DNA from: Candidatus Kaiserbacteria bacterium CG10_big_fil_rev_8_21_14_0_10_47_16
GTDB lineage: Bacteria; Patescibacteriota; Minisyncoccia; Phycocordibacterales; UBA918
Direction of reading: 5' to 3'
DNA length: 64,000 bases
Assembly: GCA_002773395.1 (NCBI GenBank)
Contig: PFBI01000006.1
Coordinates: forward strand, 156,657 to 220,656
Translations under genes and position numbers: made by a program
Notes under the pieces: model-generated
Seen by the model: only the letters and a program-made list of their open reading frames with translations
The model's database searches: none
What the model was told of the DNA's origin: nothing
Part shown: in pieces, positions 7,505-56,311 of the stretch
Layout of the letters: each line of letters starts with the position of its first letter
Numbering within the stretch: position 1 is the stretch's first letter

Positions 7505-7549
7505 TAATACAATCCTACGCCACAGGCGTAGGATTGTATTATTATTTTT
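7496..7549. terminator. Long perfect inverted repeat, bidirectional terminator between rbfA and the tRNA-Leu trailer
   Basis: aaaaataataatacaatcctacgcc-aca-ggcgtaggattgtattattattttt. Confidence 0.8.
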
Positions 7550-7760
7550 GTGCGCGGGAGAGGACTTGATTCTTACAGAATCTGTTCAGGCTGCACCACA
7601 AGAGTACTTTGATTTTCTAAAACGCAAGCGTTAAGAAAATCTGGTCGTATGATATTTTTCATACCTCAAAATATCGACAACCTTTTCAAGTCCTCTCCAT
7701 ACAAAGAAACACCAGAGAGACTCTGGTGTTTCTTTACTTTGTGCGCGGGAGAGGACTTGA
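7547..7760 (-). repeat. tRNA-Leu(TAG) 3' trailer element bounded by a 23 bp direct repeat of the tRNA 3' end
   Basis: tttgtgcgcgggagaggacttga at 7547-7569 and 7738-7760; inverted T-arm copy ttcaagtcctctcc at 7685-7698; internal hairpins. Confidence 0.85.
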
Positions 7761-7823
7761 ACCTCCACGGATTACTCCACCAGTTCCTAAGACTGGCGCG
7801 GCTACCAATTACGCCACCCGCGC
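7742..7823 (-). tRNA. tRNA-Leu(TAG)
   Basis: gcgcggg-tggcgtaattggtagccgcg-ccagt cttagga actgg-long variable arm-ggaggttcaagtcctct-cccgcgc-a; CCA not encoded. Confidence 0.95.
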
Positions 7824-7884
7824 ATATTTGTGACCGGTGCAGAATATCATGATATGCGAGTATCGTCACGGGTTTTGTGTATGT

Positions 7885-8009
7885 CATCACGAGTCACTAA
7901 GTCGCTACGCTCATAAGTGCTGGCGATCCCGCCTCGTCTGTGGCAAAGCCGCATGACTCCGGCTCGGACAAGCTAAAATCCTGACGCAGGTCAGGATTTT
8001 AAACGCTTG
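7885..8009 (-). repeat. tRNA-Lys 3' trailer element, same modular family as the Gly, Cys and Phe trailers
   Basis: Minus strand: cggacaagc...aaaatcctgac ctgc gtcaggatttt a gcttgtccg-agccggag...gaggc...cacttatgagcgtagcgacttagtg. Confidence 0.75.
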
Positions 8010-8082
8010 TCCGCCCACTAGGACTCGAACCTAGGACCGTCTCGTTAAGAGCGAGCTGCTCTACCAACTGAGCTATGGGCGG
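8010..8082 (-). tRNA. tRNA-Lys(CTT)
   Basis: ccgccca-tagctcagttggtagagca-gctcg ctcttaa cgaga-cggtc-ctaggttcgagtcctag-tgggcgg-a. Confidence 0.93.
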
Positions 8083-8242
8083 GACTGTACCATTGTGACT
8101 GCACTGTGCAGTCTGAGGAGTGCTCTTAATGTTAAGAGCGGTAGATGAGTCTAGTAGACTCATCTACCTCCACCACCTCCGCTATGGGCGGATGTAGGTC
8201 AGAGTGTACTAAATTACACCACCGAAAACAAGCTATATAGTG

Positions 8243-8326
8243 TGTCTGGGGCGGGGATCGAACCCGCACGGTCTTGCGACCACGAAATTTTAAGTCTCGC
8301 GCGGCTACCAATTACGCCACCCAGAC
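8243..8326 (-). tRNA. tRNA-Leu(TAA)
   Basis: gtctggg-tggcgtaattggtagccgcg-cgaga cttaaaa tttcg-variable arm ggtcgcaagacc-gcgggttcgatccccgc-cccagac-a. Confidence 0.95.
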
Positions 8327-8397
8327 ATGCCGAGCATCATATCATATTTCACTTGGTTATGACTCCAATGGATGATAAAGTAATCCTTGTCACAAAC

Positions 8398-8469
8398 GGC
8401 CAGGTGGCGAAGTGGTAACGCTTCGGTTTGCAAAACCGACATGCACGGGTTCGAACCCCGTCCTGGCCT
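8398..8469 (+). tRNA. tRNA-Cys(GCA)
   Basis: ggccagg-tggcgaagtggtaacgc-ttcggt ttgcaaa accga-cacgggttcgaaccccgt-cctggcc-t (U73). Confidence 0.95.
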
Positions 8470-8655
8470 CAAACGAAACGGAGTGAAGTGCAGAGGTCAG
8501 GACAAAAGCGACAACAGTCGCTTTTGTTGAGGTTCGAACGGCGGAGCGATGTTTTGGCTATTTCTAATGCCAAAACCGCGAGCCGCGTCCAGCATTCTTA
8601 TGAACGTAGTGAATTAGAAAAAGCGGGACGAACCCCGTCCTGGCCTCAAACGAAA
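8452..8655 (+). repeat. tRNA-Cys 3' trailer element bounded by a 27 bp direct repeat of the tRNA 3' end
   Basis: cgaaccccgtcctggcctcaaacgaaa at 8452-8478 and 8629-8655; interior shares modules with the Gly and Phe trailers. Confidence 0.88.
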
Positions 8656-8681
8656 AACTGCCAGTATACTGGCAGTTTTTT
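8653..8681. terminator. Bidirectional terminator
   Basis: aaaaactgccagtatactggcagtttttt, between convergent tRNA-Cys and trhO. Confidence 0.75.
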
Positions 8682-8682
8682 G

Positions 8683-53753: not shown

Positions 53754-53762
53754 AGTGTGTAA

Positions 53763-54155
53763 TTAATAACTAATGCTCTTCTGATAAAGTGAAAGTAATT
53801 TTGTTCGGTAGCTCGCGTCAACTTCTGTGTTTTTGTGTCGTACGATAAATCCGCCGGTGAGGCGTTCATCAACAACATCCTTTGTGTGTCCTTCCCCTGC
53901 TCCCGTCGTATCAAGTGCTGCCGAGATGGCGGTCTTGAGGCGTTTGAAGTCTCCCTCTTTCGCAACAGTCACCACTGGCGTCTCTGACGATTCACGAAGT
54001 GCCTCGTACTTACGAAGTTGTGCGTAGATTGAGGTGCGAAGCTTCTGGTGTCCTCGTTTTTCAAGAACCGTATCAAGTCGCGCAAGAACATCCTTCGGCT
54101 GAAGGCCATCAAGCATTGCGTCGTATGTTGCTATTGCGTACGATTTTGACAACAT
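53763..54155 (-). CDS. atpH: ATP synthase delta subunit, short form
   Basis: VDERLTGGFIV..VDASY; located between atpF and atpA. Confidence 0.85.
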   Translation of the reverse strand: MLSKSYAIATYDAMLDGLQPKDVLARLDTVLEKRGHQKLRTSIYAQLRKYEALRESSETPVVTVAKEGDFKRLKTAISAALDTTGAGEGHTKDVVDERLTGGFIVRHKNTEVDASYRTKLLSLYQKSISY

Positions 54156-54160
54156 AGGTA

Positions 54161-54604
54161 TTATTTTTCTGCGAGCACTCGCTCTGCAGCAAGGACTGCG
54201 AGCTTGGCGATTTCTGCCTCACTCTCCTTCTCGGCTTTCGCTTTTATCTCTACTCCCTTTTTCTCAGCATCCACAATAAGCGCCTGTGCCTTTGCTTCCG
54301 CGACACCTACGAGTTCAACAGACTTTTCTGCAGCGTGTGCCTTTGCCTTTTCGGCAACGACCTCAGCTTCCTTTTGTGCTTTCGTGAGGAGACTGATTCG
54401 TTCTGCTTCTGCGTTCTCCTTCAGTGCCTTCGCATCTTCAGCATCCTGCAGCCCTTCATCGATGGTCTTCTTTCGATCATCGAGAAGCTTCAGTACTGGT
54501 GTGTAAAGGAAGTACCACAACGCACCTGCAAGCACGGCGAAGTTAAGGATCTGAATTGCGACAAGTCGCGTATCAAGTCCAAATGCATTAATGAGATCTT
54601 CCAT
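54161..54604 (-). CDS. atpF: ATP synthase b subunit
   Basis: QILNF..L..FLY.PV..LDDRKKTI followed by a coiled coil. Confidence 0.92.
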   Translation of the reverse strand: MEDLINAFGLDTRLVAIQILNFAVLAGALWYFLYTPVLKLLDDRKKTIDEGLQDAEDAKALKENAEAERISLLTKAQKEAEVVAEKAKAHAAEKSVELVGVAEAKAQALIVDAEKKGVEIKAKAEKESEAEIAKLAVLAAERVLAEK

Positions 54605-54668
54605 GATGTGTGATGCTTATGAGTAAGAGATTGGGCTTCGAGTGGGATAAAACGAGTTAGATGGCGTT

Positions 54669-54796
54669 TAAAGCTTTTCAGATTGCTTCGCATGCTAGGC
54701 GGACAAGGAAAATGATGTAAAACGTACTTGTCGTACGGTGAACATTATTTTACCGCAGTCCAACAACGCAGACGAAGTAAGCCTGAAAAGGCTTTA
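54669..54796. repeat. CGTAC/GTACG-core structured repeat, copy 2
   Basis: atgctaggcggac...cgtacttgtcgtacg...gtccaacaacgcag; outer stem reaches the atpE stop codon. Confidence 0.7.
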
Positions 54797-55054
54797 CGCG
54801 AACTTGATGATGAACGCGATAACAATCGCGAAAATAGCAAGTGCTTCTGTAAAGGCGATACCGATGAACATCGTTGCCTGTACTTTACCTGCAGCTTCTG
54901 GATTACGTCCGATTGCTTCAAGTGCACGTGCAACGAGAATACCGATACCGATACCTGGACCGAGTACACCGATACCTGCGGCAATTGCCATTGCAACAGC
55001 CTTCATTGCTTCTGCGTTAATGTTTGCTAATTGTAATGCGAGCTCTGCTTCCAT
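54794..55054 (-). CDS. atpE: ATP synthase c subunit
   Basis: GxGxGxG, RNPE loop, FTEAL carboxylate. Confidence 0.96.
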
Positions 55055-55149
55055 AATGTGTTTAATTAAACTAACAACGTGACAAAATTACTTTATTCAC
55101 CGTAGCGAATAAATGAGAACGCACCGTGCGCGCTCTCATTTACCAACTA

Positions 55150-55956
55150 CTAATGGGGCTCTTCTACTGCAAGTTTGATGAAGAACAACGTCAAAATTGC
55201 AAAGATAAAGGCCTGAATGAACCCAACGAAGATCTCAAAGGCCATGAGCGGCACAGGTAGGAAGTACGGTAAGAAAAACAGTACCACGAGAATGAGGGTC
55301 TTTCCAGCAAAAATGTTTCCGAAGAGACGGAATGAAAAAGAGATAAGACGGGCCAATTCACTGATGAACTCAATGATTCCAATAGCGAACGCGAGCGGTG
55401 AGGAGAAGTTGAAGAACTTTCGGAAGTATTTAAAGAATCCAATCGTTACGACGCCGGCAATCTCAATGGCGAAGAACGCAATGAGCGCAAATGCGAGCGT
55501 GATGTTGAGGTCAGCTGCTGCGGGGTGGAAAAGTGTAATGGTGTCCTTTGCACTCTCACTGCCGTGCTCTACCACGGTCGTAAATGTGATTGCTTCAAGT
55601 CCTGGGACCTGCGCCACCCAGTTGATAGCGAGAATAAAGATAAAGATCGTCATAATCAGCGGAAAGTACTGTCGCGCAAGCTTCTTACTTTCAAGTACTT
55701 CTGCAATGTAATTGAACGAGAACCCGATAAGTTCTTCAACAATCAATTGGAACCGTCCCGGACGGAGCGCAAGCTTTGACCGAAGGATAATGACGAGAAT
55801 AATAACGATTGCCATCGCAAGCCACGCCGTGAGGAGGGTGTTGGTGATAGGTAGCCCGAAAAAGTGTCCGAGTATCTCTGGAGATAGATGGATAGGAAGC
55901 GCTGCTCCCTCTGATGCCGTATTTTCTGCTGCGTGTGCTACTGCTATAAATCCCAT
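55150..55956 (-). CDS. atpB: ATP synthase a subunit
   Basis: ITNT, PGRFQ, SFRLFGNIFAG, IQAFIFAILT. Confidence 0.95.
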   Translation of the reverse strand: MGFIAVAHAAENTASEGAALPIHLSPEILGHFFGLPITNTLLTAWLAMAIVIILVIILRSKLALRPGRFQLIVEELIGFSFNYIAEVLESKKLARQYFPLIMTIFIFILAINWVAQVPGLEAITFTTVVEHGSESAKDTITLFHPAAADLNITLAFALIAFFAIEIAGVVTIGFFKYFRKFFNFSSPLAFAIGIIEFISELARLISFSFRLFGNIFAGKTLILVVLFFLPYFLPVPLMAFEIFVGFIQAFIFAILTLFFIKLAVEEPH

Positions 55957-56099
55957 ATTTTGCGCGCGTATTCTAACAGATTTAGAGTATTAAATAAAGC
56001 CGATGTTGTGGGCAGAATAATAAGAAAACGTTGCATTGCATTACCCTACGCAAAATACTATAATCGGAGGCACTGTTTCGGAGTATTTCTCTAAAACCT

Positions 56100-56170
56100 G
56101 CGGCCATGGTTAAGTGGTATAACGAGTCCTTGCCAAGGATTAGTCGGGAGTTCGATTCTCCCTGGCCGCA
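56100..56170 (+). tRNA. tRNA-Gly(GCC)
   Basis: gcggcca-tggttaagtggtataac-agtcc ttgccaa ggatt-gggagttcgattctccc-tggccgc-a. Confidence 0.93.
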
Positions 56171-56311
56171 CAAACGCGTTAAAAAGACCTCCCCTGCGGG
56201 AGGTCTTTAGCGTTTGTGAGCCGGAGCGATGTTTCGGCTATTCCTAATGCCGAAACCGCGAGGCCGGGGAGGAAGTGCTTATGAGCGTAAGCGAATTAGC
56301 AACTTGACCCC
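56171..56311 (+). repeat. tRNA-Gly 3' trailer element
   Basis: Hairpin, then agccggagcgatgtttcggctattcctaatgccgaaaccgcgaggc, then tgcttatgagcgtaagcgaattagca. Confidence 0.82.

Follow-up and report, generated by a model that had tools for sequence, protein, structure and literature searches.

The tRNA-linked repeats (TLRs) of Escherichia coli have been without an accepted function since 1978; the published account describes 22 of them, with end repeats of 18-19 bp and no known function (PMC8144298). They lie behind tRNA or 5S rRNA genes in one to five tandem copies (tyrT/RtT, RF00391; rrA/rrB/rrF; PMC8144298). Here, we describe units of the same layout in a 64,000-nucleotide stretch (the window) of the genome of Candidatus Kaiserbacteria bacterium CG10_big_fil_rev_8_21_14_0_10_47_16 (contig PFBI01000006.1, positions 156,657 to 220,656), where folded trailers stand behind five of the six tRNA genes, those for Leu, Lys, Cys, Phe and Gly. 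We hold, with about even confidence, that these trailers are gene-less, non-autonomous mobile units of the TLR kind, whose sense strand would act as folded single-stranded DNA and undergo guide-directed cutting and joining. The genome (680,655 bp in 6 contigs) encodes 36 tRNAs and a tmRNA. ARAGORN and Rfam place the six window tRNAs where the initial annotation, made from the sequence alone, had put them, and the five trailers it reported fold, as DNA, far better than shuffled sequence (z -3.1 to -6.9).

The 18-19 bp gene-end repeat of the E. coli TLRs has its counterpart here in direct repeats of 23 nt (Leu), 27 nt (Cys) and 19 nt (Phe), which, together with antisense copies of the same gene ends, had been reported correctly from the start. 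In K-12, TLR loci carry a host-matched antisense segment directly before a two-arm core, as in the present units, and 17 pattern matches have GNA loops, with all four bases represented in the middle. The trailers are thus real and are relatives of the E. coli TLRs, differing in sequence and junction. The RF00391 model finds nothing in 41 genomes of the family (the E. coli control was positive), and our own models give no significant match in E. coli TLR loci or in K-12. The E. coli junction lies at bases 58/59 without an offset, whereas the present units show a 2-base offset (54/56). Unlike the E. coli TLRs, they also occur at protein gene ends, leave foreign stranded coding ends behind, and nest or stack; the accessible portion of the TLR account makes no mention of protein ends, foreign stranded ends, nesting or stacking, an antisense segment or mobility (PMC8144298). 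The present units are built like TLRs and probably work alike, yet are not members of RF00391. The original remark that they were not recognised as a described family holds for Rfam, in which only tRNA-clan, tmRNA and 5S matches exceeded the cut-off, and fails for their layout, which is that of the E. coli TLRs. A literature search that left out several older TLR papers found no account of the Patescibacteria units, of the guide rule or of protein-end replacement; the older papers and supplements may already note the antisense segment. Among E. coli strains, the copy at proK, annotated as RtT, is present, absent or doubled. The widely used rrnB T1-T2 double terminator of E. coli (locus L155) is itself a TLR with GNA-capped arms.

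Read 5' to 3', a unit consists of the gene end (T), a hairpin (L) with runs of A and T, an antisense copy of T, a core, and a second copy of T that often carries its own terminator. The antisense copy is often split by another hairpin (H) and ends in a guide of 10-11 nt, and the core consists of two arms (A and B), or is of a second type (type C) as in the Leu trailer. Hairpin L belongs to the unit, since its caps recur at unrelated sites (Lys/groEL; Tyr/Gly/Arg), and in most copies a terminator-like hairpin precedes the guide.

A first covariance model, R1, built for the two-arm core from 14 rows, found matches in 82 of 141 genomes of the order. From 89 listed loci, 29 of them relatives' loci from that search and 60 added to these, came 106 core matches, 103 of them distinct. 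Named relatives in which this module occurs bear the label Patescibacteria or Kaiserbacteria. A sense-oriented tRNA lies no more than 330 nt upstream of 87 of the 106 matches and a bare T-loop upstream of one; 18 have neither (several of these are second tandem copies or follow uncalled tRNAs), and none has an antisense tRNA only. Tandem copies occur at L113, L114, L118 and other loci. A rebuilt model (R2) gave 644 copies at E <= 1e-5 in 115 of the 141 genomes, a set that includes the genomes from which it was built, and matches in 9 of a phylum-wide sample of 150; all 16 loci examined outside the order have this layout and follow a sense tRNA. In the present genome R2 finds 27 copies at E < 0.001, 16 behind tRNA or tmRNA genes and 11 elsewhere. 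The proposal of a non-autonomous tRNA-targeting element is supported as to non-autonomy; the 11 copies elsewhere speak against tRNA specificity. The non-tRNA copies mostly follow the stop codons of housekeeping genes (fusA, rplE, rplB, groEL, dnaJ, ftsZ, a cytidylate-kinase-like gene, and a comM-like gene named from its translation), and three have no called gene just upstream. In a strict motif scan, 3 of 612 protein ends matched in sense and none in reverse, and a core-end motif stands behind 19 of the 36 tRNAs plus the tmRNA. Copies occur on both replication strands, as judged by GC skew, and in the sense of the gene; orientation thus follows the gene, and lagging-strand targeting is ruled out. 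This placement at gene ends, in sense, also rules out a generic repetitive extragenic palindrome (REP), one of the outcomes that the initial annotation had named as fatal to its proposal.

We analysed the junction in 117 copies (the 106 matches and 11 of this genome). A tRNA with a standard T-loop lies within 130 nt in 79 distinct copies, of which 55 are of the T-loop type and 24 are mostly of an acceptor-end type or mis-started matches. The T-loop class was picked by antisense score, so that the level of match is partly built in; the sharp edges at bases 53 and 55 are not. The antisense segment is complementary to the tRNA at base 54 in all 55 copies, at base 53 in 11 and at base 52 in 2, and in the 40 copies that keep a repeat, the repeat matches with a frequency of 0.90 at base 56, 0.03 at base 55 and 0.00 at base 54. 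The other 15 T-loop copies have lost the repeat, and 3-6 nt of it remain in the acceptor-end type. The same 2-base offset is found at acceptor ends, topA (3/3), fusA and dnaJ, a count that excludes groEL, ftsZ, rplB, rpsI, rplE, cmk and three other sites at which the junction was not located. At fusA, topA and dnaJ the two extra bases differ between sites and still match the host, and atypical tRNAs with G54 are likewise matched by the antisense segment (L050, L030).

The guide is matched to its host, as the early description of a scaffold with a guide-like segment had it. Guide bases 59-64 agree with their own tRNA at 5.4 of 6 positions, against 3.2 when guides are swapped and a maximum of 3.67 in 2000 shuffles. 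Bases 57-58 were counted separately over 74 junctions among 262 tRNAs: opposite A57-A58 the guide is the exact complement in 18 of 18 cases, and opposite G57-A58 it is the exact complement in 45 cases, a tandem GA.GA in 11, and nothing else. That only these two solutions occur requires selection on pairing. In 28 of the 30 instances of a difference between tRNA and repeat, the guide agrees with the tRNA; co-evolution of the guide with the stranded repeat was rejected.

Is the folded partner DNA or RNA? In the 103 distinct relatives 92.5% of the cells of the predicted helices pair (64.6% in shuffles, 32-41% when the alignment is slid), and 30 of 31 pairs show double-sided change, which supports the covariation anticipated for a larger alignment; helix 4 is weak (62% pairing), and all these figures lean towards structure, because the alignment was fitted to the model and the sequences are related. 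The loops point to DNA. C(GNA)G loops number 105 in the 103 cores against 21 +/- 4 in 30 shuffle sets, and no enrichment is seen for their other-strand form (4 vs 7), GNRA (33 vs 36) or UNCG (1 vs 1.4). Mini-hairpins of this kind are much more stable as DNA than as RNA, according to a review by their discoverers (PMC13037366). G.T pairs make up 2.7% in the cores, compared with 5.8% (as G.U) in the tRNA stems of the same loci; they exceed A.C pairs in the cores (66 vs 29), so that the sense strand is the folded one. These patterns indirectly suggest that the unit works as single-stranded DNA rather than RNA.

Within the window, some sub-feature ends were derived from offsets and may be in error by 1-2 bases. 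On the minus strand, tRNA-Leu(TAG) (7741..7823) is followed by a terminator-like hairpin L (7699..7740, read from the sequence, ends approximate), a 14-nt antisense copy of the T-arm up to base 54 (7685..7698, offset +43), a type C core with an inserted hairpin (7570..7684), a core type which recurs behind Val and Asn tRNAs and at fusA in relatives, and the 23-nt direct repeat, the stranded 3' end (7547..7569). A second terminator-like hairpin follows that repeat (7497-7549). On the plus strand, tRNA-Cys(GCA) (8398..8470) is followed by a cap hairpin and an antisense copy in two hairpin-split parts (8471..8537), a type I core (arms A and B; 8538..8628), a 27-nt direct repeat from base 56 (8629..8655) and a terminator-like hairpin reaching to about 8682. 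This core corresponds to the modules A and B of the initial annotation, which read as it quoted them in Cys, Gly, Lys and Phe; the pair swap noted between the Cys and Gly versions of module A is double-sided, accompanied by one loop change in an otherwise near-constant segment (93% identity over 41 nt).

The Phe trailer holds two cores. On the minus strand behind tRNA-Phe(GAA) (31349..31422) come hairpin L, with 28-bp arms extending into the acceptor stem, hairpin H and a 10-nt guide (31264..31348), a first type I core (31171..31263), a second, more diverged core of a stacked unit (31038..31126, E 0.016) and a 19-nt direct repeat from base 56 (31013..31031, offset +318). The Lys and Gly trailers represent the acceptor-end variant, with a short antisense segment and the repeat nearly absent. 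tRNA-Lys(CTT) (8009..8082, minus strand) is followed by a hairpin L of the acceptor-end type, whose outer stem pairs with the final tRNA bases and whose cap is found again after groEL (7966..8008), and by a type I core (7885..7965). tRNA-Gly(GCC) (56100..56171, plus strand) is followed by a hairpin L with a short antisense to the acceptor end (56172..56217), of which near-identical copies follow the Tyr and Arg(GCG) tRNAs in other parts of the genome, and by a type I core (56218..56311). An open reading frame of 249 codons with no Pfam match (56339-57088, minus strand) converges on the Gly trailer, and is a possible passenger.

Several other structures accompany tRNA genes of this genome. A partial duplicate of the tRNA-Lys 5' half with inserted hairpins, a 5'-side counterpart of the trailers, lies at 8083..8191 on the minus strand. 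Similar 5'-half duplicates with hairpins, sometimes with antisense, occur just upstream of Thr(TGT) (C3:28441), Val(GAC) (C6:43035), Gln(CTG) (C6:109166), Arg(CCT) and Ile(TAT), and a short one precedes Phe at about 31423-31470 of the window. A third trailer type stands behind Ile, Ile, Val and 5S rRNA genes (C1:2187-2310, C6:243216-243360, C6:43109-43200, C2:14540-14700). In this type the 3' half recurs as a direct copy whose T-loop contains an inserted module, and a GNA-type motif lies on the opposite strand. A short perfect palindrome recurs at several intergenic sites (C6:25233-25264, 91965-91995, 243360 and 261987-262016).

At fusA, among the best 30 of 58 family loci, two of which end too early to judge, about 15 are filled as judged by eye, 7 of these confirmed by R1; filled and empty alleles, whose comparison had been suggested at the outset, thus both occur. 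The insertion site is identical across the filled loci and is used by two core types. The antisense segment matches its own gene end at 8-11 of 11 positions in 13 filled loci and at 7 in one, against 5-7 in the other scored loci. Up to four or five EF-G C-termini are stacked at this site, and stacked or nested units with differing stranded C-termini occur at L178, L179, L190 and L205. At topA, one site is common to three families, with the family confirmed for L045.

Live and stranded ends were compared codon by codon in five hand-picked pairs. At topA the comparison gave 7 identical, 12 synonymous and 6 other codons in L139 and 21 identical, 4 synonymous and 2 other codons in L112, with the third topA pair (L045) informative over its first codons only; at fusA it gave 1 identical, 3 synonymous and 3 other codons. 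The stranded ends of L139 and L112 are each an intact alternative C-terminus, and their differences from the live end are mostly synonymous. A duplicate decaying in place would not keep such a pattern, which suggests that the two ends were coding sequences of different lineages while they diverged, and ends that differ largely at synonymous sites argue for horizontal end replacement. Presence of units at the same site is patchy among genomes. The present genome encodes ComEC, and Patescibacteria have been described as naturally competent (PMC12455944; PMC10187176). Two other protein genes deserve mention. In a genome of another family, an efp-like gene (named from its translation) has at its stop codon a unit with guide and stranded end (L302). 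At C6:111760-111970 (L171), a type C core separates an msrA-like gene (also named from its translation) from a 41-nt duplicate of that gene's start.

How might such units move? A unit would consist of a replacement end T', hairpin L, the antisense of T' ending in the guide, and the two-arm core. It would insert into a conserved gene end (a tRNA T-loop or acceptor end, the tmRNA, or the last codons of a housekeeping gene), such that the gene is now completed by T', while its old end remains, beyond the core, as the 'direct repeat'. Pairing of the guide would span the cut and take in some 9 bases on the T side and 2 on the upstream side, and cutting and joining could follow the manner of IS200/IS605, in which DNA-DNA pairing picks the cut site and a single-stranded circle is formed. 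The enzyme would have to act in trans. Units would spread between lineages, probably via transformation, and new guides would arise only rarely, by fold-back copying. The window also contains long, perfect-arm (21-28 bp) terminator-like hairpins (7497-7549, 18930-18974, 21760-21804, 31299-31358 and 43369-43415), possibly products of the same fold-back copying.

There is precedent for guide pairing (PMC8266576). Both IS200/IS605 and the REP/TnpA-REP (RAYT) system use strand-specific folded single-stranded DNA, an element-borne guide that sets the cut site, and service of non-autonomous copies in trans (PMC8266576, PMC6006769), and the sequence rules of the present units fit a guide-set cut site on single-stranded DNA. 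They differ from these systems in that the guide is 10-11 bases long and site-specific, the target end is duplicated or replaced, and no Y1 gene is found in this genome or linked to the copies.

A number of observations weigh against guided movement of a DNA unit. Known HUH guides have 4 bases and pair in the flank only, not over 10-11 bases spanning the cut. In most T-loop copies, host matching at bases 54-58 cannot be demonstrated, since tRNAs hardly vary at these positions. Tandem GA pairs also form stably in RNA, and the mismatches between guide and tRNA (A.C 10, G.T 5) lack a wobble bias and are neutral as to the strand. The synonymous counts come from pairs chosen by hand. Contigs of four DNA runs contained no circle and no same-strain excision joint, in a search of contigs only; a short joint across the Leu trailer, with 23 letters on its short side, came from a diverged organism and was not used. 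The E. coli TLRs are transcribed and processed (PMC8144298). As for the enzyme, the 6 contigs of this genome contain no Y1/HUH transposase, RVT_1 reverse transcriptase or resolvase/serine recombinase, and no copy enclosing a recombinase or other enzyme gene, for which the initial annotation had proposed to look, was found among the loci examined. Across the order, Y1 genes occur in 86 of 141 genomes and do not track copy number (p 0.09), with 7 of 30 element-rich genomes lacking one. The models match in 1 of 30 Y1 loci and in 4 of 70 loci with small GIY-YIG genes (3/30 and 1/40), and the three stronger of the GIY-YIG-locus matches are trailers of a neighbouring tRNA. With the first model, presence or absence of Y1 and of small GIY-YIG genes showed no significant association (p 0.22 and 0.20). 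Neither kind of gene is present in six genomes that carry at least four copies. Three enzyme candidates were rejected: a RAYT beside L015, which has its own short palindromes and no homologue in this genome; a helix-turn-helix reading frame before some tRNAs, also without a homologue here; and LAGLIDADG-like reading frames near tRNA-Asp, set aside as probably intron-borne. Among viral contigs searched with four patterns there were no matches, and the E. coli unit matches 22 'plasmid' records, most of them of chromosome size, and 2 small phage records without annotation; no mobile host was thus found.

The alternative that fares best, though we consider it rather unlikely, is one-sided homing during transformation, in which a small, Ssn-like GIY-YIG enzyme would cut incoming single-stranded DNA at the folded core. 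No circle would form; the guide would align the recipient, and the upstream join would be ordinary RecA recombination. GIY-YIG homing enzymes leave 2-base 3' overhangs, and ComEC would serve this route as well. Small GIY-YIG genes occur in 113 of the 141 genomes, and genomes with them contain more copies (mean 5.0 vs 2.9, p 0.01, uncorrected and with kin not independent), a weak tracking. Ssn enzymes cut single-stranded DNA beside hairpin repeats, and their NTS/SRM repeats are likewise hairpins of naturally competent bacteria (PMC11893778). Moreover, at L051, L061, L066, L068, L077, L085 and L091 a GIY-YIG gene sits inside duplicated tRNA ends with hairpins of its own. These cassettes, however, have different hairpins from ours and lack an antisense guide. 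The SRM are short, simple hairpins flanking the gene (PMC11893778), whereas the present units are multi-arm, guide-bearing and do not flank GIY-YIG genes. Further, 3 of 30 element-rich genomes have no small GIY-YIG gene. The present genome has three GIY-YIG matches, two of them small, and the stand-alone second one does not track copy number (p 0.93). Finally, the near-identical Tyr, Gly and Arg units in one genome need movement between unrelated sites. One-sided homing and the favoured circle-forming pathway agree in their central claim, namely a DNA unit that is guided and homes horizontally.

The GIY-YIG genes have features of their own. At the seven loci just listed and at L240 and L245, a small GIY-YIG gene is enclosed by a duplicate of a tRNA 5' end or 3' half into which a hairpin has been inserted, and some of these reading frames read into the tRNA. 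At C3:32250-32530 (L011), and at many of L065-L090, a GIY-YIG gene with terminal inverted repeats is wedged between a stop codon and the next start; this is a widespread mini-element.

We regard as improbable a cis RNA module, the second possibility raised in the initial annotation, in which read-through transcripts would fold and the antisense would compete with or free the tRNA 3' end, tuning its processing or yielding small RNAs. The strict sense orientation would fit such a role, as would the excess of G.T over A.C pairs in the cores and the good folding of the Cys trailer as RNA (z -5.6), and in E. coli the TLRs give rise to RNAs that undergo processing and that bind Hfq and CsrA in vitro (PMC8144298). 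Against it stand the loops, which are of the DNA and not the RNA type, the terminator-like hairpin that precedes the guide in most copies, the patchy presence at any one site, and the same unit at protein gene ends; the foreign stranded ends would be left unexplained. Later RNA use of some copies is compatible with the favoured DNA mechanism.

Of the same low probability are remnants of tyrosine-recombinase islands or folded att sites, whether a T-loop att or a single strand that folds into a double-stranded site for a host Xer-type enzyme. A restored gene end with a stranded old end is the classical island footprint, and integron cassettes, too, combine a replacement 3' end with a stranded one. 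The present units resemble tRNA-integrating islands and integron attC cassettes in this and in forming arrays with occasional passengers, and attC acts as single-stranded DNA (PMC5737381). This genome has a single PF00589 match, which resembles Xer-type recombinases. It lies about 135 kb past the window end, however, in line with the original remark that no integrase is nearby; none was found near the window trailers, beside any copy, or between the end repeats of the copies examined. The units also differ from islands and integrons in their size (100-350 bp), their antisense guide and their unrelated targets. T-loops, acceptor ends, fusA, topA and dnaJ have no common sequence, which a recombinase of fixed specificity would need. 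The offset is 2 bases, and tyrosine recombinases have overlaps of 6-8 bases. Between repeats at Gln, Ser and tmRNA lie genes that look like passengers, as an island would predict. Specifically, tRNA-Gln(TTG) (C3:130700-132050, L168) has two units around a 283-codon reading frame with no Pfam match, and the antisense of the second unit fits another Gln allele. tRNA-Ser(ACT) (C6:236867-238130), whose ACT anticodon is unusual, has a 3'-end repeat 1.15 kb away, two reading frames (146 and 192 codons) and no core; it is an ordinary islet.

An RNA intermediate, reverse-transcribed or reverse-spliced into the cognate gene end, would fit the sense orientation and the place at the ends of highly expressed genes, and is less probable still, given that RVT_1 is absent from the genome, the loops are of the DNA type, and no ribozyme-like Rfam match was obtained.

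More broadly, and only tentatively, TLR-type units across bacteria may be the guide and substrate of a DNA-guided single-strand recombination system with a guide of 10-11 bases that can be re-addressed to any sequence, in which an enzyme acting in trans would make its cut two bases within the paired stretch and exchange the gene end, and in which stacks would record horizontal exchange. With the junction rule, the constraint on the guide and the foreign ends at fusA and topA, the TLR question becomes a set of specific tests: which strand acts, where it is cut, and whether the guide sets the site. If the proposal is true, streamlined bacteria swap the ends of their tRNA and core genes by means of a small guided element, a programmable single-strand recombinase is still to be found, and repeats at tRNA genes that are now read as island scars would need to be re-examined.

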